Origin: a virus | Lineage: Duplodnaviria; Caudoviricetes | Virus record (IMG/VR): IMGVR_UViG_3300020045_002604 | Coordinates: 1-61,521 of that record | DNA length: 61,521 nucleotides | Direction: 5' to 3' (one strand) | Part shown: piece by piece, positions 20,189-59,946 of the stretch | Layout: each line of letters begins with the position of its first letter | Numbering within the stretch: position 1 is the stretch's first letter | Position numbers and translations under genes: made by a program | The notes under the pieces: model-generated | Seen by the model: only the letters and a program-made list of their open reading frames with translations | What the model was told of the DNA's origin: nothing | The model's database searches: none

Positions 20189-20227
20189 GAAAGCCCCGGT
20201 TAACTACCATAGTTAACCGGGGCTTTC
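20189..20227. terminator. Bidirectional terminator between converging arms
   Basis: Perfect 18-bp stem GAAAGCCCCGGTTAACTA/TAGTTAACCGGGGCTTTC. Confidence 0.85.
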
Positions 20228-20231
20228 TAGT

Positions 20232-20305
20232 TGGCACAGTCTGTAGGAGTCGAACCCACGCTTCTCGGGTTGGAGCCGAGCGTGCTACCGTAACACTTAG
20301 ACCAT
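20232..20305 (-). tRNA. tRNA-Trp(CCA)
   Basis: CTCGG-CT CCA AC-CCGAG; T-loop TTCGACT; CCA end. Confidence 0.9.
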
Positions 20306-20309
20306 ATAG

Positions 20310-20420
20310 CTGAGGACAGTTTTAAGAGTTAACTCGCGTTGCTCTGAGCGTAGGGTGTACTCATCCTGTAGGCTTGTTAGTTGACCAGTAGCCTCACGCC
20401 GCTAGGGCGAAACTGTTTGA
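20310..20420 (-). ncRNA. Putative small structured RNA
   Basis: Closing stem ACAGTTT/AAACTGT with internal hairpins; upstream TGTGG-TATGAT promoter-like site (~20433-20443). Confidence 0.35.
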
Positions 20421-20445
20421 TGTTGTGATAACATCATACCACATT

Positions 20446-20643
20446 TTACAGCGGCGTGTCAACCCCCAGCTTGCCAGCGATCTGTTCCAGTAGCGCTACA
20501 GTGTGCAGTCCTAGCACCACCTGGGTGCTGAGCAGTACATTCTGTGCGGCCTCGCTATGCCCCTCAAGCTCTAGCTCTCGGCTGACGCGTAGACCTTCCT
20601 TAACAAGTTCGCCTAGGCTCTTGGTGTTTTCTGTGTCGGGCAT
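20446..20643 (-). CDS. Hypothetical protein
   Basis: Coupled to upstream gene (TAATG). Confidence 0.65.
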   Translation of the reverse strand: MPDTENTKSLGELVKEGLRVSRELELEGHSEAAQNVLLSTQVVLGLHTVALLEQIAGKLGVDTPL

Positions 20644-21548
20644 TAGCTTGCTTTCCTAGTGTCGAGCGCAGACTGTAGGGGCTTGTTGCCTCGTGACCAG
20701 CCTCCGCAGTTGTCGCACGAAAATAGTTCGTATTCCTGTACGAATGTGTATGTATTGGTGCCGCTCTTTGTGAGAGATTCGTGTGCGCAGTAAGGGCAGT
20801 CGCCACCTTCCGTGGAGAACATACCCATGTGGGGGACGTTCGTGAGCCACGGCAACAGTCGCACGTACAGCCGCTCTGTCAGCCGCACGTCGCCCTCGTT
20901 GTACTCGCGCATCTTGGCCCACGCCTCAGGGTCACCGCCCATGCAGTCGATCCATAGCTGGAACCCCGCGTGCTCAACCTTGGCGCCCACTCCGGTAGCC
21001 TGGGCGATGTAGTCCAGCTTCCTGCTGGGTAGATCGAACCTGGCTCGGTTGGTCTTGAACAGGTCGATACTACGGAACGGCTTTGGCGGGGCCAGCCCGG
21101 CCTGTAGGAACTCGTTGTTGAGTCGCTTAACATCGTAGCGATCACCGTTGTAGGTGATCACAACGTCGGCCCGGCTGAGCAGGTCGTGGGCCGCCCTGAC
21201 CGTCGCCGCGTGTCCGTTGTCGTAATCGCTGTAGTACAGCACTTCGTCATCGCCTAGCCACTTGGCGGCGAAGCACATCATGCCGCCTGGGTCGATCAGC
21301 ATACTGTCTGGAATCCAGTCGGCTTTCTTCGACCACACGTACGCCTGCATGGGCTTGGACTCAATGTCGATTGTCAGAACCCGCGCGCGTGGTAGCACAA
21401 TATCGGCGTGGGCGGTAGGGGCGGCGTCGCCGTAATAAAGCTTACGATACTTGTTCACTGAGGTCTTACCGGTCAGGAGGATACGAGCGGCTTCGCGGCT
21501 ACTCACGTGCGCCGTAGCGTCGATTTGTTCTCGTGTTAGAAATGCCAT
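20643..21548 (-). CDS. DnaQ/RNase H-like (DEDDy) exonuclease with N-terminal HTH and C-terminal Zn ribbon
   Basis: IDIE, YNGDRYD, SRKLDYIA, YNEGDV; CPYC...CDNCG. Confidence 0.85.
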   Translation of the reverse strand: MAFLTREQIDATAHVSSREAARILLTGKTSVNKYRKLYYGDAAPTAHADIVLPRARVLTIDIESKPMQAYVWSKKADWIPDSMLIDPGGMMCFAAKWLGDDEVLYYSDYDNGHAATVRAAHDLLSRADVVITYNGDRYDVKRLNNEFLQAGLAPPKPFRSIDLFKTNRARFDLPSRKLDYIAQATGVGAKVEHAGFQLWIDCMGGDPEAWAKMREYNEGDVRLTERLYVRLLPWLTNVPHMGMFSTEGGDCPYCAHESLTKSGTNTYTFVQEYELFSCDNCGGWSRGNKPLQSALDTRKAS

Positions 21549-21554
21549 TCTACC

Positions 21555-21583
21555 ATCCTAGCATACGAAAAAGGCCCCGTCAA
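21555..21583 (-). promoter_or_regulatory. SigA-type promoter, leaderless; overlaps NrdH terminator hairpin
   Basis: TTGACG-17-TAGGAT, ATG 6 nt downstream. Confidence 0.75.
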
Positions 21584-21596
21584 GGGGCCTTAATCA

Positions 21597-21818
21597 TTAA
21601 AGAGCTGTGATCAGATCAGGTCTAAAACCTGACCAATGTGAGCCATCCGGCGCCACAACCACAGGAGCTTGCAAGTACCCAAGCTCTTTCGTGATGAAAT
21701 CGTATGCCTCACGGTTCTCCGAGATATCGGTGACGTTGTACGGCGTGCCTTGCTTATCTAGCACCTTGTATGTCATTTCGCACTGCACACATGAGGGCTT
21801 TGAAAAAACCTGTACCAA
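21597..21818 (-). CDS. nrdH: NrdH-like glutaredoxin
   Basis: KPSCVQC, GYLQAPVV, HWSGFRPD; likely TTG start after RBS GAAAGG. Confidence 0.9.
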   Translation of the reverse strand: MVQVFSKPSCVQCEMTYKVLDKQGTPYNVTDISENREAYDFITKELGYLQAPVVVAPDGSHWSGFRPDLITAL

Positions 21819-21918
21819 GCTTATTAACCTTTCGATGGGATGACGAATCCCCGGCTCAGATTGTGTCATGAACCGGGGATTCGTTGGGGCTATGTACCTA
21901 TATCAGTATAGCATAGAT

Positions 21919-21997
21919 CGGTAGCCACGGGAGGATTTGAACCTACCTGTCTTCGACGTATCAGATCGACGCTTATACCGGAATTAGCATCGTGGCT
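21919..21997 (-). tRNA. tRNA-Ile(GAT)
   Basis: TCGAT-CT GAT AC-GTCGA; acceptor AGCCACG/CGTGGCT. Confidence 0.8.
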
Positions 21998-21998
21998 A

Positions 21999-22067
21999 TG
22001 GTCCCCCTGCCAGGATTCGAACCCGGACCCGTAGGCTTAGAACACCCTAGGTGATCCATCCAGAGGG
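21999..22067 (-). tRNA. tRNA-Arg(TCT), truncated D-arm
   Basis: T-arm CCGGG TTCGAAT CCTGG, loop GT TCT AA, CCA end; D region only ~11 nt. Confidence 0.6.
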
Positions 22068-22074
22068 ACAGTAT

Positions 22075-22455
22075 TTAGTTGGCGTAATCGAACGGAGAGA
22101 CAGTACCGTCTAGGTAGTGAATGTAACCCTCGTGATCCTTGGCCCACTTGTAGTCACCGTAGACGCTCTCGCGCTCAAGCGGCGTGATCACTCCGTCTAC
22201 GATCAGACGACCATAGACGCTGGGCGACTCCGATCCCGAGCCCCACGCCTCCGACCAACGAGAGCCACAGCACTCGCAGTCACGGCTGTAGTTACCGTCC
22301 TCGTCGTAGCTGTCGAAGTACAGACCGATGCGCTCGGCGCGGTCATTGGCCTCTTCGGCGCTGCCTGCTTCGATGATGACGTAGGGACCGATACCGTCAA
22401 CAGCGTCTTCGAGGAAGAAGCCGCCGCTGTTGTTCTGGTGGAACTCATAAAACAT
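22075..22455 (-). CDS. Hypothetical phage protein
   Basis: FYEFHQNNSGG...DCECCGSRW; RBS AGGAG. Confidence 0.75.
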   Translation of the reverse strand: MFYEFHQNNSGGFFLEDAVDGIGPYVIIEAGSAEEANDRAERIGLYFDSYDEDGNYSRDCECCGSRWSEAWGSGSESPSVYGRLIVDGVITPLERESVYGDYKWAKDHEGYIHYLDGTVSPFDYAN

Positions 22456-22486
22456 GATCTACTCCTAGTTATTTTGTACGGTTAAG

Positions 22487-22560
22487 TGGACGTACCTACT
22501 GGATTCGAACCAGCGTGCGCGGGGTTGCAATCCGCTACCTAGCCTCTCGGTCAAGGTACG
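22487..22560 (-). tRNA. tRNA-Cys(GCA)
   Basis: Loop TT GCA AC; U73 and CCA. Confidence 0.9.
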
Positions 22561-22561
22561 G

Positions 22562-22636
22562 TGGTGGGTGCGGCAGGTAACGATCCCGCCTCCCAAGATT
22601 AAAAGTCAAGTGCTAATCCTTCTCAGCTACACACCC
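22562..22636 (-). tRNA. tRNA-Lys(TTT)
   Basis: Loop CT TTT AA; T-loop ATCGTTA; CCA. Confidence 0.85.
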
Positions 22637-22645
22637 AAAAATAAA

Positions 22646-22719
22646 TGGCTCACAGACCTGGATTCGAACCAAGGCGAACTGATTCAGAGTCAGTCATGCT
22701 ACCGTTACATCATCCGTGA
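22646..22719 (-). tRNA. tRNA-Gln(CTG)
   Basis: ACTGA-CT CTG AA-TCAGT; CCA. Confidence 0.92.
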
Positions 22720-22720
22720 G

Positions 22721-22792
22721 CGCCCCATCCGGGATTCGAACCCAGAATTTCACCTTCGTAGGGTGTTAGTTTATCCGTTAGCTTAACGGGGC
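22721..22792 (-). tRNA. tRNA-Arg(ACG)
   Basis: CACC-CT ACG AA-GGTG. Confidence 0.9.
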
Positions 22793-23074
22793 CTAATCCG
22801 CACAGTGTTCACAGCCTGCGCAACGCTGTTTATGTGTTCTGTCTCTGTGACAATTAGCGCAAACTAAGTCACACTTCATGCTTTCTTTTAGCTGTCTTTC
22901 GTAGGAAATAGACGAGCCTTCCCCTAGCCCAAACGCTTTCTGTGTCGGGTCGCGGTGATCGAAGTCCATTTGCCAGGGTTTGCCCGCCAGTACACAATCT
23001 ACGCAAGCGCTACCATGCGCCTCGATTAATTTTACCTTTGTGCGTTGTCTCCACGCAGTTACCGGGTGCGTCAT
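22793..23074 (-). CDS. HNH endonuclease
   Basis: CVDC...MDFDH...CDLVCANCHRDRT. Confidence 0.85.
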   Translation of the reverse strand: MTHPVTAWRQRTKVKLIEAHGSACVDCVLAGKPWQMDFDHRDPTQKAFGLGEGSSISYERQLKESMKCDLVCANCHRDRTHKQRCAGCEHCAD

Positions 23075-23075
23075 G

Positions 23076-23146
23076 CTCTCCCCCTTGGAATCGAACCAAG
23101 CCCTGATGGTTAACGGCCACCTGCTCCGCCTTGGAGCTGAAGGAGA
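23076..23146 (-). tRNA. tRNA-Asn(GTT)
   Basis: GGTGG-CC GTT AA-CCATC. Confidence 0.85.
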
Positions 23147-23224
23147 ATAACCTCACACACTACCGCCGTGCTACTGAGGAATAAGTGAGGGTTCCTACTC
23201 TCTTCGTGTCACCCACAACCACTG

Positions 23225-23291
23225 TCCTCCCACTAGGAATCGAACCTAGCCTGCAACCGTGTAAAGGTCGCGCCCGCCCAACGACAGGAGG
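23225..23291 (-). tRNA. tRNA-Val(TAC), truncated D-arm
   Basis: GCGACC-TT TAC AC-GGTTGC; T-arm CTAGG TTCGATT CCTAG; D region ~11 nt. Confidence 0.7.
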
Positions 23292-23366
23292 TTACATAGT
23301 GGCCGATACTACCGGTTACCATTTCGGGATACGCTGTACCTGTTATCTAATGGAAGGCCACCACAG

Positions 23367-23440
23367 TGCCGACGACAGGAATCGAACCCGCATACTCCAT
23401 ATTACAAGTATGGTGCTAAACCAGTATTAGCTACATCGGC
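23367..23440 (-). tRNA. tRNA-Thr(TGT)
   Basis: CCATA-CT TGT AA-TATGG. Confidence 0.92.
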
Positions 23441-23453
23441 GTGTATTTAATTG

Positions 23454-23723
23454 TTACTTTCTACGCTTAGGATCATACAGCACTTCATCGAAGATTGCAA
23501 GGTGCTTCTTGTTGAAGCTGTACATTTGCATTCCCTGTCGCGCCGTCCACCCGTACCCTGGCAGGTTGTCCGTCAGCGTTGTGCGGGGTATGCCCGTTGT
23601 GTAGGAGACTTCGCGGTAGCTCGCGCCGTCCTCAAGCAAGGACTTGGCGAACTCCCAACCCTTATCTGTGTAGTTGTGTGTCTTCGGACGACCCGTAGGG
23701 CGACCTGTCTTTACGTATCCCAT
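23454..23723 (-). CDS. HTH DNA-binding protein
   Basis: GRPTGRPK arm plus LLEDGASYREVSYTTGIPRTTL helix-turn-helix. Confidence 0.75.
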   Translation of the reverse strand: MGYVKTGRPTGRPKTHNYTDKGWEFAKSLLEDGASYREVSYTTGIPRTTLTDNLPGYGWTARQGMQMYSFNKKHLAIFDEVLYDPKRRK

Positions 23724-23724
23724 G

Positions 23725-23798
23725 TGCGGCACGGGAGATTCGAACTCCCACTAAATCGTTGGCAACGACTTGTGCTAACCGTTAAACACTAGTACCAC
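23725..23798 (-). tRNA. tRNA-Gly(GCC)
   Basis: AGTCG-TT GCC AA-CGATT. Confidence 0.9.
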
Positions 23799-23799
23799 G

Positions 23800-23874
23800 T
23801 GCGGTAACAGAGACTCGAACTCTGCCTTTCAGTTTGGAAGACTGACGTGCTAATACCACTAACACTACTACCAC
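23800..23874 (-). tRNA. tRNA-Gly(TCC)
   Basis: TCAGT-CT TCC AA-ACTGA. Confidence 0.9.
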
Positions 23875-23875
23875 G

Positions 23876-23947
23876 TGCCCCCGGTAGGTAACGATCCCAC
23901 GTCTACAGGTTAAGAGCCAGTTGCTAATCCATCTCAGCTACGGAGGC
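23876..23947 (-). tRNA. tRNA-Lys(CTT)
   Basis: Loop CT CTT AA; T-loop ATCGTTA. Confidence 0.85.
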
Positions 23948-24027
23948 ATGTGTGGGCCGACCAACTCCCACCGAGTATTTCTACCCTGCGTTTTCCTCCT
24001 AATAACCGAGGTTTGAGGTCGAGTGCG

Positions 24028-24112
24028 CGGAAAGTGGGAGAGTCGAACTCCATACCTTGCGGTACGATCTGTTTAGCAAACAGGCCAGGGCACCAACCCT
24101 GTTCTACCTTCC
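24028..24112 (-). tRNA. tRNA-Ser(GCT)
   Basis: CTGT-TT GCT AA-ACAG; long variable arm TACC GCAA GGTA; G73. Confidence 0.88.
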
Positions 24113-24207
24113 AAGTTTTGAGTACCCGCGCGTGGACAATAAAGTGCTCGCTTCTTCGCCCGTAGTCTAACGACTGTGCGCGGGTACCCAAGTTTTTAGT
24201 TATTAAG

Positions 24208-24290
24208 CGGCGAGTGCAGGATTCGAACCCGCACGACCCAGGAGGTCATCAAGCTTTTCAAGAGCCATAAGTACGCCAATACGACTCGCC
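24208..24290 (-). tRNA. tRNA-Ser(TGA)
   Basis: Loop CT TGA AA; long variable arm; short D-arm. Confidence 0.75.
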
Positions 24291-24355
24291 AAATGGTTAG
24301 AGGCCCGATACTTGTAAGTACCGGGCCTCTGCCAACCAACACAGAAAGGAGGAAT

Positions 24356-24418
24356 TTAACCCAGCACAAAGGCCCCGACGTTATTGCCGGTGCGCTTCGA
24401 CTGGATCGTGATGAACAT
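24356..24418 (-). CDS. Putative leaderless 20-aa peptide MFITIQSKRTGNNVGAFVLG
   Basis: ATG 6 nt after consensus -10. Confidence 0.45.
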   Translation of the reverse strand: MFITIQSKRTGNNVGAFVLG

Positions 24419-24424
24419 ACTGTT

Positions 24425-24453
24425 ATTCTAGCACAACTTTGACGGTTTGTCAA
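24425..24453 (-). promoter_or_regulatory. SigA-type promoter
   Basis: TTGACA-17-TAGAAT with TG extension. Confidence 0.85.
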
Positions 24454-24463
24454 CAGTTAACTG

Positions 24464-24544
24464 TAGCCCCGGAGAGATTTGAACTCTCAATCCTTTCGGC
24501 ACCAGTTTCTAAGACTGGCGTGTATACCGTTCCACCACGGAGCC
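24464..24544 (-). tRNA. tRNA-Leu(TAG)
   Basis: CCAGT-CT TAG AA-ACTGG; variable arm CC GAAA GG. Confidence 0.92.
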
Positions 24545-24545
24545 G

Positions 24546-24619
24546 TACGCGGGGAGGGATTCGAACCCTCACACCCAAGCTTTTGAGGCCCGGAGGTATA
24601 CCGTTCCCATCACCCGCGC
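24546..24619 (-). tRNA. tRNA-Leu(CAA), short variable loop
   Basis: CGGGC-CT CAA AA-GCTTG; Leu-type D loop GGTATAC; A73. Confidence 0.8.
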
Positions 24620-24630
24620 GTATTAAATTG

Positions 24631-24792
24631 TTAGGAGGGTAGCCCCTCCGTCATCACACGGAACTTCGTGCGACGCTTGCGACCCAGCCACTTGGCACCC
24701 ATCTGGGCTGTCTCCCGCGCGCTGTACAAGAACGGTGATCCGTCCCGCATGAGTGCAGTCTGGCGAGTCTTGATGTCGATGAGATAGTACAT
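24631..24792 (-). CDS. Small basic hypothetical protein
   Basis: MYYLIDIK... after purine-rich RBS. Confidence 0.55.
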   Translation of the reverse strand: MYYLIDIKTRQTALMRDGSPFLYSARETAQMGAKWLGRKRRTKFRVMTEGLPS

Positions 24793-24889
24793 GGTACTCT
24801 CTTTCTTGTTGGCGAGTGGTTTCGGCTGGTAACGATCCAGCAACTCCGGGACTTCAATCCAGCGTGTATCCATTAACACTTCAAAACCG

Positions 24890-24964
24890 TGGTGGGAGCA
24901 CTTAGGGTCGAACTAAGCTACCGTTGTTTTACAGACAAGTTGCGCACCCCGCGCACTTACTCCC
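24890..24964 (-). tRNA. tRNA-Tyr(GTA), short variable loop
   Basis: TTGT-CT GTA AA-ACAA; acceptor GGGAGTA/TGCTCCC, A73, CCA. Confidence 0.8.
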
Positions 24965-24965
24965 G

Positions 24966-25038
24966 TACTCCCAAGGGGATTCGAACCCCTGCCACCCGGT
25001 GTGAAAAACCGGCATCCTAACCACTAGACCATGAGAGC
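24966..25038 (-). tRNA. tRNA-Glu(TTC)
   Basis: CCGGT-TT TTC AC-ACCGG. Confidence 0.92.
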
Positions 25039-25170
25039 GTACAACCGGTAGCATACTCTTCTGGCTTACGATCCAGTACCCTTTGCTATGAAATGGAAGA
25101 ACGCCCTCGGTTGTCCGACGTTCCGACTCTGAGTGGTATACCTTGCGGCAGTGACGATACTCAGCCCGCG

Positions 25171-25241
25171 TACTCCGTAGGGGTTTCGATCCCCTGACAA
25201 TAGGTTGAGAACCTAACGTGTTGCCATTACACCAACGGAGC
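25171..25241 (-). tRNA. tRNA-Glu(CTC)
   Basis: TAGG-TT CTC AA-CCTA; T-loop ATCGAAA. Confidence 0.85.
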
Positions 25242-25297
25242 ATAAGAATGAAAACCCTGCAGCTTTAGGCCCGTTTCAGGGGCGATCTTCATTCTAG

Positions 25298-25369
25298 CGA
25301 ACCTAACGGGTTACGATCCCGCTTCCTTCCGGCTGACAACCGGGCGCTTATCCATTCAGCTTTAGGTCC
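25298..25369 (-). tRNA. tRNA-Asp(GTC)
   Basis: CCGG-TT GTC AG-CCGG; T-loop ATCGTAA. Confidence 0.85.
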
Positions 25370-25373
25370 AAGA

Positions 25374-25460
25374 TGCAGTTGTCGGAGAATTTCACGTCCG
25401 AATCGAAGCGGTTCTACCGGCAGGGCCGGGTCCGTGACGCTCTTATTGAGCTACAACTGC
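25374..25460 (-). ncRNA. Rearranged tRNA-like RNA
   Basis: Acceptor GCAGTTG/CAACTGC-A and D-arm GCTC/GAGC intact; anticodon and T regions non-canonical. Confidence 0.6.
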
Positions 25461-25463
25461 AAG

Positions 25464-25541
25464 TGGGGTGAACGACGGGAATCGAACCCGCGACGGACTG
25501 ACTCACAATCAGGCTGAACTGCCAGCAGTTCCCCGTTCAAC
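25464..25541 (-). tRNA. tRNA-His(GTG)
   Basis: CTGA-TT GTG AG-TCAG; G-1, C73, CCA; 6-bp D stem. Confidence 0.85.
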
Positions 25542-25542
25542 G

Positions 25543-25617
25543 TCTAGGTGGCAGGATTCGAACCTGCGGCCTTAAGCTTCCAAAGCAAACACTCTGACCA
25601 AACTGAGCTACACCTAG
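25543..25617 (-). tRNA. tRNA-Pro(TGG)
   Basis: Loop TT TGG AA; C1-G72, A73. Confidence 0.88.
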
Positions 25618-25765
25618 TTATGTGGATACCCTAACAGTTAGCACCGTATGTACGGCCTGTGTCTTGGGATTGTGACTCACGCCCCCGCAAGGTTTCTGGT
25701 CTGGTATCCTCTGCCTCCCACCTCGCAAACCTTTTTCGGTGGGCTGTGCTATTTAGTTTTTAAAG

Positions 25766-25841
25766 TTGCCGGGGAGGGATTCGAACCCTCGATTTCGAGA
25801 TTATGAGACTCGCGTCGTAGACCTAGCTGGACCACCCGACA
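25766..25841 (-). tRNA. tRNA-Met(CAT)
   Basis: CGAG(T)-CT CAT AA-(T)CTCG; initiator vs elongator vs Ile2 not resolved. Confidence 0.85.
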
Positions 25842-25844
25842 ATA

Positions 25845-26583
25845 CCGTGTAGGGGCTGAGAGTACACCCTACAATGGCAAGCTTTCGTTGGATTATTTGT
25901 TCCCAACTTCTCCACAGTATCCCTACTGTACTTACCGCGCCTGGTGGATTTTACGGGGCACCACCCCAGAATCAGAAAGCTACTCCACAGGTTTGACTTC
26001 GTAAAGGGACCGCTAAACCCCTAAACTGCACTACTCCCTTATGAACTACCTTGGCCTTGCGAGCTTCCAGTAGCCTCAGTTCCCGTGTTAGGGCTGAGGA
26101 TTAAGACGCTTTCACTCTCTGACGGAACAGGCTTTCGCTTGTATTTTGAAATACCATTTTCAATATGGAGCACCCTATAACCCAGGTGCGGGGCATGACA
26201 GAGGACGTGCTGTTCCATGAAGTTCCGTAGGCTTTTGACCCACAGTATGCTTCACGCCCTCATGCTTTCGTTGGCGACTACTCACACTCTCCGCTACTTT
26301 CCGAACTGCCGTCCGTGCCGTAGTTTCATGGTGACCGCCCTAGTTTGCCGACTCGGACTTATCACCCTGCGTTGAATACTCAGGCTTACTAGATGCCAGT
26401 CTATGCCTAGACTCGCTCCACCGGTTGGCCCTGCGATTTACACTTCGCTCACCTGAGTAGTGACCGTTACGATCACTTAATCATTGCATTGCGTAGTTTA
26501 CCCTTGCGGGCGGAAGCTTTGTCGAACTTCCTTTCACCAACTCACGTTGGCTTATGGGCTACGCCCCAACACATTGCTGTGTC
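25845..26583 (-). ncRNA. Large structured ncRNA, GOLLD-like
   Basis: ~740 nt with no ORF >=60 aa, between tRNA-Ala and tRNA-Met; many GNRA-capped hairpins and AGUA/GAA motifs; 3' hairpin TGTAGGG-TGTACTCTCAG-CCCCTACA; size and context fit GOLLD. Confidence 0.7.
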
Positions 26584-26584
26584 G

Positions 26585-26657
26585 TGGACCCACGGGGACT
26601 TGAACCCCGCGCCTTCTGCTTGCAAAACAGATGCTCTACCGGATGAGCTATAGGCCC
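26585..26657 (-). tRNA. tRNA-Ala(TGC)
   Basis: TCTGT-TT TGC AA-GCAGA; G3:U70. Confidence 0.93.
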
Positions 26658-26672
26658 GTATTTACTTTGTAC

Positions 26673-26701
26673 ATATTAGCAGAGGCCGGATACTTTGTCA
26701 A
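26673..26701 (-). promoter_or_regulatory. SigA-type promoter of tRNA/ncRNA array
   Basis: TTGACA-17-TAATAT just upstream of tRNA-Ala. Confidence 0.85.
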
Positions 26702-27754: not shown

Positions 27755-28504
27755 TTAACTGAGGTCGGACCAGGAGGTCCCGATGCTGTAGTCTGATAGG
27801 AACGGCACGGCGTCGCCGAGAACCATCCTGCCTGTCTTGCGTAGTTGAAGTCCTACATAGCGACCGATTGTGTCGGCGTTATCGGACGGACCCTCGATCA
27901 TCATGGCGTCATGGACCAGGTTAAACAGCTTGTAGCCTGCATCCTTGAGGGACGGGTTGATACGGATCGCGGTTGCCAGCAGGATATCACTTGACGTACT
28001 CTGCGGCAAGAACGACAGAGCTTCGCGCTCGATGTTCCTGTAATTTTTAGTTGTTACAACTTCCGACTGGAAGCGGCGCCCGAACGGATTGATCAGCAGG
28101 TCACGGCGGCTGGGTATTCTCGCCGCCGCCTTAACGTCTTCGCGCCACTTAGCAAAGCCTACCGCAACAGCCATGTAGTTGTCAATGATCCTCTGGGCTT
28201 CCCAGGTCTTCATGCCTAGGGACTGCGCGATAGCTGGTGCCTGGCGACCGAACGCTAGACCGTACTGAACCGCCTTAACCTTCGTCCGGGCCTCTTTGTG
28301 GAGGACCGGACATTTCTCTTTGTAGACTTCGATTGACCCGAACTCGTGGACGATCTGCGGGAACGCTACAGGCATAAGGTGACTGTCAAAAAAGTCTCCC
28401 GCCCCTTCCTGTAGCGCCCCGATCATCCACTCGTCGTTAGACAGCCGCGCCATGACCCGGAGTTCGGCCTGCGACAAGTCGATGTTAATCATCACCGTCT
28501 TCAT
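27755..28504 (-). CDS. polA: Family A DNA polymerase, C-terminal part (motifs A, B, C)
   Basis: DLSQAELRVMA, RTKVKAVQYGLAFG, NLVHDAM; own RBS GGAGGA before ATG 28504. Confidence 0.92.
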   Translation of the reverse strand: MKTVMINIDLSQAELRVMARLSNDEWMIGALQEGAGDFFDSHLMPVAFPQIVHEFGSIEVYKEKCPVLHKEARTKVKAVQYGLAFGRQAPAIAQSLGMKTWEAQRIIDNYMAVAVGFAKWREDVKAAARIPSRRDLLINPFGRRFQSEVVTTKNYRNIEREALSFLPQSTSSDILLATAIRINPSLKDAGYKLFNLVHDAMMIEGPSDNADTIGRYVGLQLRKTGRMVLGDAVPFLSDYSIGTSWSDLS

Positions 28505-28673
28505 CTGGTTCCTCCCCCTCATCGTCTGGCGGATTGGGCGTGAACCCCATCTGCGTTCGCGTTTCTAGGGTGTGCGTTTCGGGTTCCTCTACTTCGAACC
28601 CGCCGTGTATGATCGTGCACAATACCTCACCGGCATCGTCACCTACATACTTGATAACCGTAAAGCCCTTCAC
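28485..28673 (-). CDS. Small acidic protein between the polymerase halves
   Basis: GTG start after RBS GAGGA; 62 aa with acidic tail. Confidence 0.6.
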   Translation of the reverse strand: MKGFTVIKYVGDDAGEVLCTIIHGGFEVEEPETHTLETRTQMGFTPNPPDDEGEEPDEDGDD

Positions 28674-28674
28674 T

Positions 28675-30087
28675 CTATTCCTCGATCCGCACAATTTCTC
28701 GAACGCGCTTGTCTCGCGGCATGTTCTGGGCGTTGGGCTTCGTGCTGGACAGGCGCCCTGTGGACGTACCGTGCACCAGGAACGTAGGGCGCACCCTTGC
28801 CTGCGTATCGCCGTCGAGCTTGCGGGCCTGGGCGCCCCAGCCCTCGGCGTAGGTGCTGTTCTGCTTGGCCAGCCCCCGGTACTCTAGGAGTACGTGACAC
28901 CAGTCCGCGACAGCGGCCTCGGGGTTGTTTTCGATAAGCTCTGCCAGCGTGGCCTCGTTAGTCGAGAACACCACCCTGCCGAACCGGTCAGAAAGTGCTC
29001 GCTTTACCTGGACGGGACTGTTAGGGTTGAACTTAACATCACCCGCACCCTCCCTAAGCTGGTCGAGCATCAAGTCCATCGTCTGTATATTGGCACTACG
29101 CAGACTCTCTGCCGCCTGGAAGCTAAACGGGATACCGTTCATTTCCACTTCGAGCAGAAGCTCCGCGAGCGCCAACTCAAACTCAAACGCTTTCTGGTTC
29201 TCTTCGTCCGCTTCGATCTGCGGTGCGAACAGTTCCCACAACTTGTAGGTCCAGTACACGTCCCACCCGTTGTAAGTAATCAGAGCACCCCAAGGGATAA
29301 GCTCGTAATGACCTCCACCCTTGGTGTGCTTGTTGATACCCTCTTCCCAGTCCGGTGCGCCGTAGTATCTACGTGCGAGAATCTTGAGTCCATGCTCACC
29401 CGCCGCGTGGTTGAGTACGTGATGGGCCAGCATCGTGTCGAACCATACGTGCAACTCAACACCCAGTACTCTGTTCAGCACGCGGGTATCGAATTTGCCG
29501 TTGTGGTAGATGCCCTTGGTGAACTTAGGTAGCGCCTCTTTGAGCATGTCCAACATGCTCTCGCTAAGGGGCTGGCTACTACCGTCTGTTGCAGGGTTGT
29601 GATATACCACGGGGTAGCACCCATCCTGATACAGCGCGACGGAAATGACCTCTACCTCTTCCGCCGTGTGTGACCTTCCCAGGTTACCGTTTGTTTCAAT
29701 ATCGATAGCCGTGGGCTTGTAGAAGTCGAAGTCGAATAGCGCGGGGTGCGCGGCTCCACTAGCATAACCAGCGGGCTTGATGTGCTCCGGTGGTGTATGC
29801 ACACCATTGAAGTACAACTGCAACGACGACGTGAGCACCGTAGCCGCATTAGCTTTGGCCATGATCTGGGCGATGGAGTACGTGTAGATATACTCGTTGT
29901 CGAAGACCGCCCGTTCTGGGGCGCGCGAGCCGAACACAAGGACACGACGAGGCGACGCGTCGCTGGGCTTAAGCTCTACGAACTTAACGTCGTCGTACCC
30001 GTTAGCTTCCTTGATGTTTTTTAGGACTTCAATCGCTCGGGGAGTCGGCTCCTGCTCTGAGTAAATCCAGCAGATTCGGTGTTCCAT
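28675..30087 (-). CDS. polA: Family A DNA polymerase, N-terminal part (3'-5' exonuclease + thumb)
   Basis: IDIET, HNGKFD, DTMLAH, YNGWDV; FNPNSPVQ; GTSTGRLSSTKPNAQNMPR. Confidence 0.92.
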   Translation of the reverse strand: MEHRICWIYSEQEPTPRAIEVLKNIKEANGYDDVKFVELKPSDASPRRVLVFGSRAPERAVFDNEYIYTYSIAQIMAKANAATVLTSSLQLYFNGVHTPPEHIKPAGYASGAAHPALFDFDFYKPTAIDIETNGNLGRSHTAEEVEVISVALYQDGCYPVVYHNPATDGSSQPLSESMLDMLKEALPKFTKGIYHNGKFDTRVLNRVLGVELHVWFDTMLAHHVLNHAAGEHGLKILARRYYGAPDWEEGINKHTKGGGHYELIPWGALITYNGWDVYWTYKLWELFAPQIEADEENQKAFEFELALAELLLEVEMNGIPFSFQAAESLRSANIQTMDLMLDQLREGAGDVKFNPNSPVQVKRALSDRFGRVVFSTNEATLAELIENNPEAAVADWCHVLLEYRGLAKQNSTYAEGWGAQARKLDGDTQARVRPTFLVHGTSTGRLSSTKPNAQNMPRDKRVREIVRIEE

Positions 30088-51682: not shown

Positions 51683-51700
51683 TTTTGTAATCCTTAATTT

Positions 51701-51762
51701 TCGGTGTTCGTTGTGGCTGGTTCGGTGTTCGTTGTGGCTGGTTCGGTGTTCGTTGTGGCTGG
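51701..51762. repeat. 21-bp tandem repeat x3
   Basis: TCGGTGTTCGTTGTGGCTGGT. Confidence 0.9.
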
Positions 51763-51808: not shown

Positions 51809-51838
51809 ACACTACACCGGGCACAGGGATGCTGTCAA
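51809..51838 (-). promoter_or_regulatory. SigA-type promoter
   Basis: TTGACA-18-TAGTGT. Confidence 0.6.
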
Positions 51839-52229: not shown

Positions 52230-52269
52230 GGATGGATGGATGGATGGATGGATGGATGGATGGATGGAT
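52230..52269. repeat. (GGAT)10 microsatellite
   Basis: Directly visible. Confidence 0.95.
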
Positions 52270-52553
52270 CAGTTGTGGAGCAGAGTCCACCGGGTGTAGG
52301 CCAGGGCGAGGAACGGGTTACCCGTCGGGTTGATCGAAGACGTGTAGTCCGGCCCGTGGTTAGAGTACCGCACGATGAACGTGGTCGTGCCGAGGGTTTC
52401 CTCGTCGTCGTGGACGTACAGATCGACAAAACCGTCCGTGTCGTCCTGCTTGGGGTCCGGCGTTCCACGGTAGAACGATCCCACGAAAACGCACTTGTCG
52501 CAATCGTGGGTGTGGCGCGGCGTAGTCGGCTCAGTGAATGCGGGAATCGACAT
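52269..52553 (-). CDS. Hypothetical protein
   Basis: HDCDKCVFVG...DLY...RYSNHGPDYTS. Confidence 0.7.
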   Translation of the reverse strand: MSIPAFTEPTTPRHTHDCDKCVFVGSFYRGTPDPKQDDTDGFVDLYVHDDEETLGTTTFIVRYSNHGPDYTSSINPTGNPFLALAYTRWTLLHN

Positions 52554-52674
52554 TTCTAATCCTTAAGTTTCGGTGTAGCTCGGTGTGGGCGGATGATGGA
52601 TCAACCATGACCGGCGACACTTAAGGTTTTAAGGCTTAAGTGTCACCGGCCAAAGCGGGTCCAGCGTGGGGCGA

Positions 52675-53286
52675 TCAGGACCAGGACTCAGCCGTGACCG
52701 TGATCGACGCGATCAGTCGGAGCGCTTCGGTCACGTCCTCGTCCGACAGTTCGACTTCGAGGGCCAGGGTGTCAGCGGCACGCAGGGCGGACAGGAAACG
52801 CTGGGCGGGCGTCTGTCCCTTGGACTCCGGCTTCTCGGCGTCGAGGTCGATCAGCGCGGTCAGGTACTCCACGATCACGGCGCGGCGCTTGTCCTCGTCG
52901 TCGTACTCGGTGAGGGTTCCCAGCGCGACCTTGATCGCGTCAGCGACCTTCTTCTTAAGGTGCTTGGCCCGCGCCGACTCCACCAGCCCGACGACACCGA
53001 GGATCGCACCGTCGCGGGTGTTGGCCGATGACGGGACGGGCAGACCCGTGCTGACGTACAGGTCGAACGACGTTGCCGCGTTAGAAACGGTCGAGGACGA
53101 GAAGTTGTCGAGGATGATCCCGTGCTCGGTTGCGTAGGCCACTCCCGCGGTGTGCACGACGTGGGCGGGCAGTTTCTTGCCATCTTCGGTGTCGCGCTGA
53201 GCGATGCCGATACTCAGGACGCGGCGGGCGATAGCCGAACCCGTAATCTTGTAGGCCGCGGCGACGTTCTCGATTGCAGTGGACAT
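52675..53286 (-). CDS. Hypothetical protein (first gene of early operon)
   Basis: 203-aa ORF with strong G/C third-position bias. Confidence 0.75.
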   Translation of the reverse strand: MSTAIENVAAAYKITGSAIARRVLSIGIAQRDTEDGKKLPAHVVHTAGVAYATEHGIILDNFSSSTVSNAATSFDLYVSTGLPVPSSANTRDGAILGVVGLVESARAKHLKKKVADAIKVALGTLTEYDDEDKRRAVIVEYLTALIDLDAEKPESKGQTPAQRFLSALRAADTLALEVELSDEDVTEALRLIASITVTAESWS

Positions 53287-53307
53287 GATTGTCTCGATTC
53301 TGTGAAT

Positions 53308-53336
53308 GGTTGGTTGGTTGGTTGGTTGGTTGGTTG
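53308..53336. repeat. (GGTT)7 microsatellite
   Basis: Directly visible. Confidence 0.95.
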
Positions 53337-53359
53337 CACTTAAGTTTTAAGACTTAAGC

Positions 53360-53950
53360 GCTGGTGTCGGTTGACACTAGACAACCTAGGTTTAGGTTTA
53401 CGCTATCCCGCTATGGTTCGGCAAATTGCCCCTATAGCACTCTAAGGGTGTGCGACTAATCCTAGGCTGAAACTATCAACCGGTTTATTAGTTAATGTCT
53501 GACCTTGTAAGGTATCTAGGATTGTGGCCTATTACCGGCCCCTCATTCTGCCATTACAGCGGAATTTACTTATTAAAGTCTGGCTGTCCTAGTAGTGCTA
53601 TCGGGAGACTGTCACTCATCCCGTTATAGGTATTACGTTCCGATTGTCCGTTACTCAATCAATCGGCAGACATTAACTAGCGCGTAACCATAAGTCATCC
53701 CTATGGCGGACGGTATGCGTCCCGCGTCCCCTATGTAATTGGTAGGCCCGGTGTTTGCGGGCCAAGTGTTCTAGCGGGGCTTACATGTATCTGTATCTGC
53801 CCTATTCGGATGCGTTCCCTCAGACTGTTACTAGCGTATTCGCCGTCCTGGCCGGATAGGATCGGCCCGCCTAAGCGGGGTGCCTATCTCGCATCCTGTA
53901 GTGTTCGCGGCCCCGGTCAGTTGCCCCGGTCCCGCTTGCCCTACAACTGA
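53360..53950 (-). ncRNA. Putative large structured RNA/leader
   Basis: No credible ORF; dense hairpins; 13-bp helix 53489-53501/53667-53679 crosses helix 53458-65/53516-23; strand inferred from operon direction. Confidence 0.55.
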
Positions 53951-54411
53951 AAAACTATCCCATATCGGGGGGCAGGGGAACCACTTAAGGCCTAAAACGG
54001 CATTCTGTTATCATCCTGTGACCAAACGTTCGAAGAATAGGCCGATGTTCGAATGTTCTGCGCTGTGAGGGTCAATAGGAGGGGGTGAGTGTAGTACGTA
54101 TGTTCGAAAAACCGTGCCAGCAACCGATATAAGCAAATAGCTAATCAGCCTAGGGTAGACACGCATGCCGGTCATGTGGTATATGCACGTGCCTAGGTGT
54201 GTCTCTCGCGTAGCGCGCGCCCGACGTAGCGCTACGTCACAGTGAGGGAACCGCATGCATGCGTACGCGTGTGGGGCATATGGGATGAAACATGCCCTGG
54301 TAAGCCCTAGGTGCCCCGTAGGCGACCGTATATGGGCAGGGTGGCATGCTGGTATGGGTAGGCCAATTCTAAGGGCTTAGCAAGCGCTTTCCCGTGGGGC
54401 AGTGTGACATG

Positions 54412-54539
54412 TGTGGTCAGACCACATGGGAGGGTAGCTGTGGTCAGACCACATAGGTGTGCGTGTGCGTGTGGTCAGACCACACTTCGAATAAGTTGTC
54501 GGCGCAAACAATTCATTTCCGTCGTGTGGTCAGACCACA
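54412..54539. repeat. Four copies of palindrome TGTGGTCAGACCACA
   Basis: At 54412, 54439, 54470, 54525. Confidence 0.95.
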
Positions 54540-54751
54540 GAGGGTGTCGTGGGTGGTGCCTATATGTATGAGGTTTGGCTCTGCGCGTATGTATAAGTTA
54601 AAGAAATCCCCCTTTGACCAGGGGTTTTTACTGTTACTCTGCAAAAATTCGCTTTTAGAGCTGCTCCTGTAGAATCTTAACAAAGAATAACTCTCTTAGG
54701 CTTTAAAAATACACATTTGCATACCAGAACACACTGTGATAGGGTATGAGC

Positions 54752-55090
54752 ATGAGAGAACGAGCGATTCTGGTGGACTGGGACTTGTACCGCACCAACA
54801 AGCACACACAAGACTTCGTGAAGGCACGCCAGGGTCAGGCACGGCTCATTTTGCTGGTATCCCACCCCGCGGAGAACGATTATGAGTACGGGGAGCGCCC
54901 GGACGATATTGAGTGGGACGCGGTGATCAGGAATACTGGGACACAGGGCGTTGTTAAGTTCAAGTACAAAGCACTAGACATTATTACTTCCGTGAGCAAC
55001 CTCGACCCGGTGATTGGGCTGGATGCGAGCACGGCGGTGAACGACCTGTACCGCGACAGCGGTGTACTGATTACGACGGAAGACCTGTAA
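54752..55090 (+). CDS. Hypothetical protein, possibly degenerate HAD/PNK-phosphatase fold
   Basis: AILVDWD...K...IGLD...VNDLYRDSGV; leaderless after TGTGA-TAGGGT. Confidence 0.5.
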   Translation: MRERAILVDWDLYRTNKHTQDFVKARQGQARLILLVSHPAENDYEYGERPDDIEWDAVIRNTGTQGVVKFKYKALDIITSVSNLDPVIGLDASTAVNDLYRDSGVLITTEDL

Positions 55091-55091
55091 A

Positions 55092-55619
55092 ATGGCATTG
55101 CCACCAGTTACTAAGACACAGCGGGGCCTGACCCTGCTGGAAAGCGCGGCGTTGGATATGCTGGCCGAGGGCAAGTCCCCTCGTGCTATTGGCGAAGCGT
55201 TGGGGATTAGCCCCGGCGAGGCGGCTAAGTTGGCGTATAACCTGCTGGACCGTGAAATCATCACGGATATCGAACAGCGACGTAAGCTACAGGTGTATCG
55301 GCTTGAAAAGATCATCGAGGCGTTGTGGCAGAGGGTTATGAAGAACGCCGAGAAAGACGACGTGAAGAACCTGGTGGAAGTGCTGGATAAGCTTAACGTG
55401 CTCCTGGCGCTGAACAAAGAGCAGGATCAGGCGTACGAGACTCGGATGCACGCTCACCAGCTTGAAGGGTACCTACAGGCGACGTTGTTCCTGATTGACA
55501 GGTTCATGAAGCTGGCGCCAAACCTGATGACGGCGGAGCAGTGGACGGCATGGACGGCTGACGGTATTGAAGAAGCGCGCGCCCTGATGATCACAGAGGG
55601 TGATGAGGCGTGGAACTGA
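55092..55619 (+). CDS. Putative terminase small subunit
   Basis: N-terminal HTH (GKSPRAIGEALGIS), RLE...LW...LLAL; upstream of TerL. Confidence 0.7.
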   Translation: MALPPVTKTQRGLTLLESAALDMLAEGKSPRAIGEALGISPGEAAKLAYNLLDREIITDIEQRRKLQVYRLEKIIEALWQRVMKNAEKDDVKNLVEVLDKLNVLLALNKEQDQAYETRMHAHQLEGYLQATLFLIDRFMKLAPNLMTAEQWTAWTADGIEEARALMITEGDEAWN

Positions 55620-55921: not shown

Positions 55922-56225
55922 CACAACACAGCGCGAAGTGCGCGTTAAGTTCTGGGAGCTTGCTCGCCGACAGTTCCCCGCCGTGGGTGAGCCGGGCACC
56001 GTGTGGGTACTCAGTGAGGTACTCGGTTGGGACTGGGACCAGATCAACCGCACCGCCGTTGAGGGTTTCAGCAAGGACGGCTACCGTTTGTTCCTTCTGG
56101 ACGACAATGGGGATCGAATCTTCAACCACGAGAAGGGCGAAGTGACTAAGGTCTACCGCAAGTGGACGAAGGCAGAGCGGTCCAAGCTCAAGGATTGGTG
56201 GTGGTTGCTAGGGTATGAGTACTAA
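55914..56225 (+). CDS. Hypothetical protein
   Basis: MSDTTQREV start. Confidence 0.6.
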   Translation: MSDTTQREVRVKFWELARRQFPAVGEPGTVWVLSEVLGWDWDQINRTAVEGFSKDGYRLFLLDDNGDRIFNHEKGEVTKVYRKWTKAERSKLKDWWWLLGYEY

Positions 56226-58145: not shown

Positions 58146-58197
58146 AAGGGTTTTGAACTCTTAAAAGCGCCCATATCTTTACTTTGGACGTATACTG

Positions 58198-58227
58198 TGT
58201 GGTACATACCACAGAGTGTGCTAAGAT
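58198..58227 (+). promoter_or_regulatory. Portal promoter with upstream palindrome
   Basis: TGTGGT-ACAT-ACCACA then TGTGC-TAAGAT. Confidence 0.55.
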
Positions 58228-58236
58228 AGTAGAGAT

Positions 58237-59946
58237 ATGGGCGCACTTGACTTTCTCCGACTTCCTAACCATGTCGAGGCTATCGAAGACCTCGGCACCT
58301 ATCGGCGCGCCTGGGAACAGGAATACGCTAACAACGCCGTACTCAACGAAGAGGTAGGCTTCCTACGCTCTGAACTGATCGAGGTCCGCGAAGACCTACT
58401 CAAGATCAGCGACGCTTTCGACAACGTTGGCTGGGCGCCGCTTGCTGGCGATGAGGCCAAAGAGCTGTCGCTCAAGACCGTCAAGAACATTGCGAAAATC
58501 GCCCGCGCGATGAACGCTGTGAACCCTTTTGTGAAGCGCGGTGTCAACGCGCGTATTTCTTACATCTGGGGACGCGGCGTTAAGTTTGACGGTATCGAGT
58601 CTATCAAGGACTCCTTTGGTCGGGATCGACGCAAGTTGTTCTCGCCCCAGGCTTATGAAGAGCTAGAGCGCGTTCTTGCCACTGACGGCAACGCGTTCGT
58701 GGCGTTCCCTATCAAGGAAGAGGCCAATGGCCTACCCACCAGCACGTTCCGCGTGATCCTAGACGAGATTACTAACAGTATCTCGAACCCGATGGACCGC
58801 GAAGAAGTGTGGTACTACCAGCGTACTTACAAGGTTGTCGTGACGAACCGCGAAACCGGTGAGCAGGAGCCTAAGGAAGAAATCAAGTGGTACGCCAGCC
58901 TAGGCTACTACCAGAAGCTTAAGGCGCTGGGCAAGTCTCTGCCGCGCCGCTGGAACAAGCACGGCGTCGAGCAGAACTACGTCCTACAGCACACAGCCGT
59001 GAACAAGCAGGTTGGGTGGCGTTGGGGCGTTCCTGACATTCTGCCGGTGATCTTCTGGGCCAAGGCGTACAAGGAATACCTTGAGGACAACGCCATGCTC
59101 GTTAAGGCGTACTCTCGCCTCGCATGGCAGGTCAAGGTACCCGGTGCTCAGTCGGGTAACACCGCTTCCGCTCAGGTGATGGCGCCGCCGACACGCGACC
59201 CACTGACCGGTGAGCTACGCAGTGTGGGTGGGACGCACATCGGTACCCACGAAGTAAGCTCCATCCCGTCCACTGGTTCTACTGTTAACTTTGATAACGG
59301 TAGCGCACTAGCCTCCGCTATTGCGGCGGGACTAGAAGTGTCCAAGGTTGTGATCCTGTCCGATTCTGGTAGCTCCAACCGCGCCGCTGAGGGTAGTCTA
59401 GACCTTCCGACCTTGAAGGCTATGGAATCGCGTCAGCAGTTGCATGTTGAGCGGTTCATGGAAATCTTCGAATTCTGGGGTGCTAAGGTAGACCTTAACA
59501 TGTCCAGCCAGTTGCTCACTATCGAAGAGCAGGCTACGTACAACGCAGAGTTCATCGAGTCCGCAGGCGAGAAACCCGAGGCGTCTGAGTACGCGTCTGT
59601 AGTGTTCCCGCCTATCGAGGCATCGTCTGAGAAGGACCATATCGCCGCCCTTGGCACCGCCGTCGAGCTGGGCGTGCTATTCCCCGCTGAGGCTCGCCGT
59701 GAGGTTCTTGAGGCTATGAACATCAGCCCGATCAAGCCGTGGTGGGAGCTTCCGACAATCGAGGACAACCCGGCTAAGAAGGAAGAGCAGGACCGCGCCG
59801 ACGCTCAGGCCGAGCAGGCGTTCGAGCGTGAGCAGTCCGTCATCGCCAAGCAGGGTGTCTCCGGTGGTGTATCCGCCAAGGGTGGGGCACAGAGCACAGC
59901 TAACAGCGCCCGAGACAACCGGGCCGCAGACAGCAAGAAAAAGTAA
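58237..59946 (+). CDS. Portal protein
   Basis: Follows TerL; NPFVKRG, DGNAF, WGVPD, VVFPPI. Confidence 0.9.
   Translation: MGALDFLRLPNHVEAIEDLGTYRRAWEQEYANNAVLNEEVGFLRSELIEVREDLLKISDAFDNVGWAPLAGDEAKELSLKTVKNIAKIARAMNAVNPFVKRGVNARISYIWGRGVKFDGIESIKDSFGRDRRKLFSPQAYEELERVLATDGNAFVAFPIKEEANGLPTSTFRVILDEITNSISNPMDREEVWYYQRTYKVVVTNRETGEQEPKEEIKWYASLGYYQKLKALGKSLPRRWNKHGVEQNYVLQHTAVNKQVGWRWGVPDILPVIFWAKAYKEYLEDNAMLVKAYSRLAWQVKVPGAQSGNTASAQVMAPPTRDPLTGELRSVGGTHIGTHEVSSIPSTGSTVNFDNGSALASAIAAGLEVSKVVILSDSGSSNRAAEGSLDLPTLKAMESRQQLHVERFMEIFEFWGAKVDLNMSSQLLTIEEQATYNAEFIESAGEKPEASEYASVVFPPIEASSEKDHIAALGTAVELGVLFPAEARREVLEAMNISPIKPWWELPTIEDNPAKKEEQDRADAQAEQAFEREQSVIAKQGVSGGVSAKGGAQSTANSARDNRAADSKKK

Follow-up and report, generated by a model that had tools for sequence, protein, structure and literature searches.

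The interval 53360-53950 of a phage genome is read here as the body of a modular, untranslated leader of approximately 650 nt that belongs to the leftward genes and lies on the minus strand, a reading that we prefer and hold with slightly less than even confidence. For this leader we infer transcription itself, its strand, its start point and its function. The hairpins LH and HP-A, located before the first leftward gene (gene 1), and HP-B, located after it, were shown to be exceptional folds. The initial annotation had described the interval as a single large, almost wholly paired RNA of an unrecognised family, heading an early operon. Its position at the head of the leftward gene block was borne out, and no Rfam family was matched; the single large RNA did not hold up when folding and conservation were analyzed.

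Gene arms and the non-coding gap

The virus record analyzed (the window: the whole stretch of DNA, 61,521 bases) is a complete, circularly assembled, actinophage-like genome of 61.5 kb. The first and last 106 bases of the record are identical and both lie inside an ORF; this repeat was therefore taken as the assembly overlap of a circular or collapsed map and not as a real end. The rightward genes run from 54746 across the record ends to approximately 20133 and include a small HTH protein, the large terminase and the structural genes. The leftward arm carries 21 tRNAs (20232-26657), a GOLLD RNA, and replication and unknown genes up to 53286. The flagged interval is located within a non-coding gap of 1,459 bases (53287-54745), at which the two gene arms diverge. 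Because the nearest named phages are those of Arthrobacter cluster AQ (Amigo; terminase 37% identical, primase 33.5%), the host is probably an actinobacterium.

Two features of the arms themselves were recorded. A perfect 18-bp hairpin with a 3-nt loop (20189-20227) lies exactly at the convergence of the rightward and leftward arms and is likely a two-way terminator. The Pol I-type DNA polymerase is found in two ORFs on the minus strand (27755-28522 and 28675-30087), which match successive parts of phrog_17 (positions 608-998 and 1007-1232): either the gene is split or it is interrupted by something in the 150-nt gap.

All six frames of the gap were found to be non-coding and, as had been stated for the interval, no credible ORF was present: within 53360-53950 no ORF exceeds 46 aa. 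Best-frame codon scores for 53251-54750 ranged from -0.09 to -0.38 (genome median +0.17, 10th percentile -0.18), and no conserved peptide was detected by tblastx against the upstream region of the relative L004 (best E 0.2). The A-over-T bias of 53200-53900 resembles that of a leftward coding strand. Both the non-coding status in six frames and this bias favour a leftward leader. No match to the gap was obtained by blastn against 50,697 phage records, and no description of this gap element was found in the literature searched.

Other ways of reading the stretch were rejected. With TAG read as Gln, 53471-53950 becomes a frame of 159 aa whose product, rich in Cys, Pro and Arg, does not look like a protein; none of the 21 tRNAs is a suppressor. 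TAG serves as the stop codon in 2 of the 40 long ORFs tallied. Translation with Table 4 (TGA as sense) opened nothing convincing or protein-like. A mobile element, with the 8-bp direct repeats CACTTAAG as target duplications, was rejected since terminal inverted repeats are lacking and similar boxes occur in L004.

The gene to which the putative leader would belong is the following:

52675..53286, minus strand: gene 1, coding for a 203-aa all-helical protein of no known family

Gene 1 had no Pfam or PHROG match. Neither PDB nor BFVD contained a fold matching its structural model (pLDDT 84.3) at E <= 0.001, and the model gave no clue to an RNA- or DNA-binding role. Six homologues are 53-60% identical; tblastn against the 50,697 phage records produced no match, and protein-pattern and alignment scans for gene 1 detected no relative in IMG/VR or GTDB genomes. 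The same kind of scan in JGI metagenomes identified one locus, L004. A protein-pattern scan with the 175-aa neighbour gene found no relative, and scans with the terminase found two close fragments (L002 and L003) that end short of the gap, other relatives being at most 38% identical. The comparison of upstream regions covers one relative, L004. Searches of the gap by blastn and nhmmer against all 23 compared loci yielded nothing useful.

The putative leader and its counterpart in a relative

The stretch between the upstream box and gene 1, together with the region just after gene 1, contains the following elements:

53982..53998, minus strand: upstream box GTTTTAGGCCTTAAGTG, with GCCGT before it; bounds the ORF-free stretch on the side away from gene 1
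53952..53957, minus strand: -10-like TAGTTT of a tentative leftward promoter, from which transcription would begin near 53945
53898..53945, minus strand: 5' hairpin of the putative leader; 66-nt fold of -24.6 kcal/mol, z -3.08, helices with pair probability >0.9
53842..53853, minus strand: 12-mer GGCCAGGACGGC, exact in L004 413-424 on the same strand
53795..53808, minus strand: 14-mer CGAATAGGGCAGAT, exact in L004 656-669 on the same strand
53368..53482, no strand assigned: LH, a long imperfect hairpin of 115 nt and 40 pairs; 82 nt separate its end from the start codon of gene 1
53336..53361, minus strand: HP-A, a 10-bp hairpin formed by GCGCUUAAGU and ACUUAAGUGC with one G-U pair; pair probability >0.9
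53307..53336, minus strand: (ACCA)7.5 tandem repeat, an unpaired C/A-rich spacer that precedes the start region GAGACAATCATG
52610..52650, minus strand: HP-B, a perfect stem of 16 bp that closely follows the stop codon of gene 1; -25.4 kcal/mol, z -8.22

Transcription would proceed leftward from a weak or factor-dependent promoter near 53950-54000. The leader would begin with the small 5' hairpin and continue through approximately 450 nt of little stable local structure, carrying a few conserved short words of the AUAGGG type and, on the side of LH, the domain closed by the 13-bp repeat (53679-53489). Its gene-proximal modules would be LH, HP-A, the unpaired (ACCA)7 spacer and the gene-1 start codon, with HP-B following gene 1; on the minus strand (ACCA)7.5 is followed by GAGACAATC and then by the gene-1 ATG. 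LH, HP-A and HP-B may act on the RNA: they would either serve its processing or stabilisation or form an attenuator that meters gene 1, as in the T7 early region.

LH folded at -46.2 kcal/mol (z -5.10) on the minus strand and at -42.9 kcal/mol (z -3.08) on the plus strand. This is an outlier: among 148 background windows of 125 nt the mean z was -0.44, and only two were at -3.5 or lower. For HP-A the values were -13.1 kcal/mol and z -5.63 on the minus strand versus -10.4 kcal/mol and z -1.94 on the plus strand; the windows covering 53262-53436 gave z -3.2 to -5.0 on the minus strand versus -0.1 to -1.3 on the plus strand. The outlying fold of LH and the minus-strand preference of HP-A and its surrounding windows argue for the leader reading, as does the CUUAAG core common to HP-A and HP-B, which bracket gene 1.

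In L004, a JGI contig, the gene-1 homologue is 37% identical and the preceding 914 nt contain no credible ORF. A gene-sense promoter-like site, TTGCAT-N16-TATCTT, is found approximately 505 nt upstream of the start codon, and the block around it aligns with the upstream box and TAGTTT of the window; the box itself aligns with L004 371-395, where it overlaps this site. No window of the L004 scan folded more strongly than an imperfect hairpin of 114 nt (735-848), which is separated from the start codon by 67 nt, compared with 82 nt for LH; a strong local fold follows the gene (1521-1620, z -4.8). This arrangement, with an ORF-free stretch, a promoter-like site in gene sense, a long hairpin before the gene and a strong one after it, supports the leader reading. 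So do the 12-mer and the 14-mer, found exactly and on the same strand: in 1000 dinucleotide shuffles, a shared word of at least 14 nt occurred in 0.8% and two words of at least 12 nt in 1% (P 0.008 and 0.01). The sequence GAGACA(N)ATCATG is also common to the gene-1 start region and L004.

LH and the L004 hairpin occupy the same position and are unrelated in sequence. The L004 hairpin is consistent with conservation of structure, as a single comparison by which the strand is not settled: it folded at -42.1 in sense versus -50.2 in antisense orientation (z -3.47 and -5.92), so that the strand preference is opposite to that of LH in the window. This reversal counts against the leader; G-U counts do not pick a strand for LH, and a DNA palindrome fits equally well. 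Beyond the two short words no significant similarity was detected between the gap and the L004 upstream region (best E 0.094), and the distances between the shared marks are 97/34/442 nt in the window versus 10/232/214 nt in L004. Judged from these sequences, the layout and the long hairpin appear to be conserved between the window and L004, and one large architecture does not.

The AUAGGG words occur four times on the minus strand (53805, 53734, 53704 and 53435), one of them being included in the 14-mer CGAATAGGGCAGAT. Of the ten ATAGGG sites of the genome, four fall in this stretch, all on the minus strand. Pair probabilities showed no common structural context for the words. They are not enriched in L004, where TAGG was found twice in sense and four times in antisense orientation within the leader, a result that counts against the leader reading.

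The upstream box matches the motif GTYTTARNMCTTAAGTG exactly; the genome contains 17 sites of this motif versus 1.6 expected. This enrichment is partly due to the ribosome-binding module of the phage, ...TTAAGGATTAGAAATG, which gene 1 does not have.

Of the first four leftward genes, three have C/A-rich tandem repeats directly before their ribosome-binding regions: (ACCA)7.5 at 53307-53336, and others at 52230-52269 and 51700-51762, in mRNA sense and of the types (ATCC)10 and a 21-nt unit repeated three times. The exception is the 94-aa gene at 52553. L004 has C/A-rich spacers at the same places. These may be unstructured, translation-enhancing spacers.

The -10-like TAGTTT upstream of the interval on the minus strand, pointed out earlier, is present and aligns with the -10 TATCTT of L004; its -35 is poor (TTCCCC, 3/6 by our own reading). 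Scans of the gap for a minus-strand promoter returned 0 sites by consensus and 0 by a stricter scan, none with a -35 match of at least 5. The lack of a convincing minus-strand promoter in the gap speaks against a leader. Elsewhere in the genome, 12 sites consist of a perfect TTGACA and TANNNT separated by 17-18 nt, with TGn in most; all are on the minus strand, between 20438 and 51814. The one nearest to the gap is at 51814, and such sites serve genes located further left. None was found in the rightward structural arm. Their distribution suggests that early and middle promoters are of the host-sigma type and that late transcription has a mode of its own. Since no TTGACA-type minus-strand site lies in the gap, the gene-1 promoter would be weak, different or factor-dependent. 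The reading of CTATAGGG as a T7-like promoter was rejected, there being no ORF of the size of a single-subunit RNA polymerase.

In the early region of coliphage T7, a long leader follows the A1-A3 promoters, and RNase III hairpins are located before gene 0.3 and between the early genes. The stretch described here is similar in that several hundred gene-free nucleotides head the first genes and in that long imperfect hairpins flank the first cistron (LH and HP-A before it, HP-B after it), as is also the case in L004. It differs in that no strong host-type promoter was detected on the minus strand of the stretch, where only TAGTTT with its poor -35 was found, L004 having TTGCAT-N16-TATCTT. There is no sequence relation to T7, the host is probably an actinobacterium, and RNase III cleavage is putative here.

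A second comparison is provided by the Arthrobacter phage Amigo (L008 2621-3606, record 52621-53605), in which an unannotated, ORF-free gap of 985 bp heads a long leftward operon. The position and the layout are similar, with TTGTACYGG iterons, TTCCACNNTGTGGAA palindromes and several 125-nt windows of z -4 to -5.4. However, there is no sequence similarity between the two gaps, gene 1 and Amigo gene 83 are not homologous, and a promoter-like site lies approximately 50 nt from gene 83, the first leftward gene. The Amigo gap would thus not be a leader, which weakens the case for one here. This gap is not discussed in the excerpted text of the paper describing the phage (PMC5513430).

If the leader reading is true, this would be another phage that spends several hundred bases on untranslated RNA before its first genes. 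That RNA would combine a long, conserved hairpin with an unusual spacer of C/A repeats, and the clade, in which GOLLD is present already, would be useful for studying how phage leaders meter early gene expression. A more specific proposal seems unlikely to us: that the ~650-nt leader, with LH as its conserved core, represents a new phage ncRNA family heading the leftward genes in a rare GOLLD- and tRNA-carrying actinophage-like clade, and that it works in cis, either as an antiterminator or attenuator or, in the way of PE1-T of the c2 phages, as an origin or primer transcript.

A possible role of the gap as DNA

The right half of the gap and the start of the rightward genes contain the following features:

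54000..54745, no strand assigned: rest of the gap, rich in palindromes by sequence scans
54163-54349: four copies of GCATGC within 190 bp, the only four in the genome
54412-54543: four copies of the 15-bp palindrome TGTGGTCAGACCACA, with spacings of 27, 31 and 55 bp and an AT-rich stretch after them
54609-54624, plus strand: terminator-like hairpin with a T-run, z -0.91
54717-54745, plus strand: TTGCAT-N17-TGATAGGGT, directly adjoining the first ATG of the rightward genes, with ATG codons at 54746 and 54752

A random hexamer would be expected approximately 15 times in a genome of 61.5 kb, compared with the four GCATGC copies, so that this word is avoided elsewhere. The TGTGGTCAGACCACA array looks, from its sequence, like an operator or iteron array. 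A search with the paired-iteron DNA pattern gave two candidates that were rejected: the match in L005 is a coding repeat only, and L006 has no other similarity to the window. Words of the TGTTCGAA type recur at 54029, 54048 and 54103. The position of TTGCAT-N17-TGATAGGGT is as expected for a leaderless first gene of a rightward operon; the start at 56215 is adjoined in the same way by TGCTAGGGT.

Such features raise the possibility, which we regard as doubtful while giving it real weight, that the stretch works as DNA: as part of the virion's terminal repeat or of its packaging region, as an origin, or as an array of protein-binding sites. LH would then be a cruciform-capable palindrome and the CACTTAAG boxes would be boundary or recognition sites. 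The palindromes packed into the right half of the gap and the absence of a consistent strand preference in LH agree with such a role. So do the 17-nt direct repeats that bracket the stretch (53337-53353 and 53982-53998), and the placing of CACTTAAG, of whose five genome sites four, including the upstream box, lie in 52618-53989.

Genome ends would also be plausible at this place. The terminase is closest to that of the Arthrobacter cluster AQ phages (37%), which have long direct terminal repeats according to the excerpted text of PMC5513430, and the gene arms diverge at the gap, a frequent location of the ends in phages with this layout according to the Cluster AP passage of the same paper. 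In the lactococcal c2-type phages the gap between the divergent early and late blocks is the origin, as stated in the excerpted text of PMC7150918. A role at the DNA level is less easily reconciled with the preference of HP-A for the minus strand as RNA and with a base skew like that of transcribed leftward DNA. The cumulative GC-skew minimum, near 45-48 kb, is away from the gap, and the 106-bp repeat of the record ends, being in coding DNA, is uninformative on the real ends.

PE1-T of the c2-type phages (Ceduovirus) is a non-coding early transcript at the replication origin (PMC7150918, excerpted text). Compared with the features of PE1-T given there, the present stretch is similarly free of ORFs and ribosome-binding sites, stands at the head of early genes between divergent blocks and has one copy of a signal at each of its two borders. 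It differs in that its two boxes do not follow the TTGACA/TANNNT rule, in that the GC-skew minimum is elsewhere and in the unrelated phage lineage. A PE1-T-like role in replication is putative. Should the stretch be a terminal repeat or an origin and not a leader, the genome ends of an uncultured phage would be fixed.

Folding of the interval and possible transcription from its left edge

The main stem of the structure first proposed and the pair said to cross it are as follows:

53489-53501 and 53667-53679, no strand assigned: 13-bp perfect inverted repeat, TAGTTAATGTCTG and CAGACATTAACTA, enclosing 165 nt
53458-53465 and 53516-53523: 8-bp pair, AATCCTAG and CTAGGATT, by sequence reading

All the complementary words quoted earlier were found at, or within 1-2 nt of, the places given for them, and the crossing of the 13-bp pair by AATCCTAG/CTAGGATT was confirmed in the sequence, as were GGATGCG/CGCATCC, CCGATTG/CAATCGG, GGCCCG/CGGGCC, GGACG/CGTCC and CTGGTGTC/GACACTAG. 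By our own arithmetic approximately 2.7 perfect 8-bp complements are expected by chance in 600 nt, and the listed pairs of up to 8 bp are expected by chance. Genome-wide, 11 inverted pairs (seed 11, arms at most 300 nt apart) were found including the 13-bp repeat, versus approximately 4.4 expected by the same kind of estimate; two other long-range ones are in coding DNA. The 13-bp repeat is thus real and within genome-wide chance, and no counterpart was recognised in L004. None of the results supports a pseudoknot.

The claim that the interval is almost wholly pairable describes an ordinary property, the mean unpaired probability being 0.43. Against 20 shuffles the interval gave z -4.24 on the plus and -3.54 on the minus strand (-3.93 and -4.08 on repetition). 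It therefore folds better than shuffled controls on both strands; among 14 equally long coding windows, three show an advantage of this order (z -3.85, -4.01 and -6.97), and in a composition-regressed ranking the interval came 26th and 37th among 362 native windows. The window with GOLLD and tRNA gave z -0.32. In this genome, folding z-scores obtained by shuffling are thus unable to tell RNA genes apart from coding DNA.

Within the interval, 300-nt windows ranged from z +0.16 to -1.72. Scans of 100 and 125 nt detected significant local folding in two places only, 53262-53486 and the iteron block 54412-54586; from 53487 to 54336 every 125-nt window was at z -2.0 or above on both strands. Folding of the interval as a whole is not beyond the native genomic background, and exceeds it only for LH and HP-A. 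Approximately 80% of the interval (53487-53950) is not notably structured.

A discrete new structured RNA of approximately 600 nt, with long-range and crossing helices and standing as a second ornate RNA beside GOLLD, is decidedly unlikely in view of these results. In its favour are the global z of about -4 on both strands, the 13-bp long-range stem and the absence of an Rfam match. A search of Rfam 15 over 52500-55500 at E <=10 returned only three miRNA matches, all outside the interval and sub-threshold; for 53287-54010 the best match had 16.1 bits against a gathering score of 42. Yet ~80% of the interval has no local fold better than z -2.0, the global z is inside the range of the coding DNA of this genome, the 13-bp stem is within chance, and similarity to L004 is limited to two short words whose spacing, like that of the other shared motifs, differs several-fold and does not fit one conserved architecture.

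The phage does carry one giant RNA already. At gathering level, Rfam matched only GOLLD (RF02032; 25853-26262, minus strand; 210.5 bits, E 4e-58) and tRNAs in the whole genome; GOLLD lies among the 21 tRNA genes and is presumably the first large RNA to which the initial annotation alluded. The MFE z-score is blind to it, so that weak scores do not exclude a real RNA, and partly for this reason a large RNA was not rated lower. The interval resembles the ornate GOLLD and ROOL RNAs in its large size and phage setting; it is unlike them in having no covariance-model match at E <=10, in not lying beside tRNAs and in its little local structure. TTGACA-N17-TANNNT sites occur just upstream of GOLLD, at 26678 and 26808, and mycobacteriophages of the cluster M type share approximately 90-150 nt of it at 72-82% identity.

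The left edge of the interval also contains a promoter-like site on the other strand:

53371..53398, plus strand: TTGACA-N16-TAGGTT, promoter-like; directed rightward into the interval and antisense to gene 1

Rightward transcription from this site would give an antisense or non-coding plus-strand RNA, forming a switch of convergent promoters or running to 54609-54624. This is very unlikely. The site has the only perfect -35 on the plus strand and lies in non-coding DNA, the CTGGTGTC/GACACTAG hairpin pairs better on the plus strand (G-U there, A-C on the minus strand), and the terminator-like hairpin with its T-run would provide an end. However, approximately 0.7 such sites per strand are expected by chance (own arithmetic); the site lacks the TGn typical of most minus-strand sites and has a 16-nt spacer. 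The first 178 nt of the putative RNA gave z -0.80, the terminator-like hairpin scored only z -0.91, and the antisense promoter-like site of L004 differs in geometry.

Functionless spacer DNA with chance pairings would account for the chance frequency of most listed pairings and for a global fold within the native background, and is scarcely credible given that the gap and its L004 counterpart have been kept ORF-free though phage genomes are tightly packed, that LH, HP-A and HP-B are strong outliers, and that the shared words exceed the shuffling expectation.

The top folding outlier of the genome scans lies outside the gap: a 38-nt imperfect palindrome at 58167-58244, between the terminase and the next gene, with z -4.0 at 300 nt and -3.4 at 621 nt.
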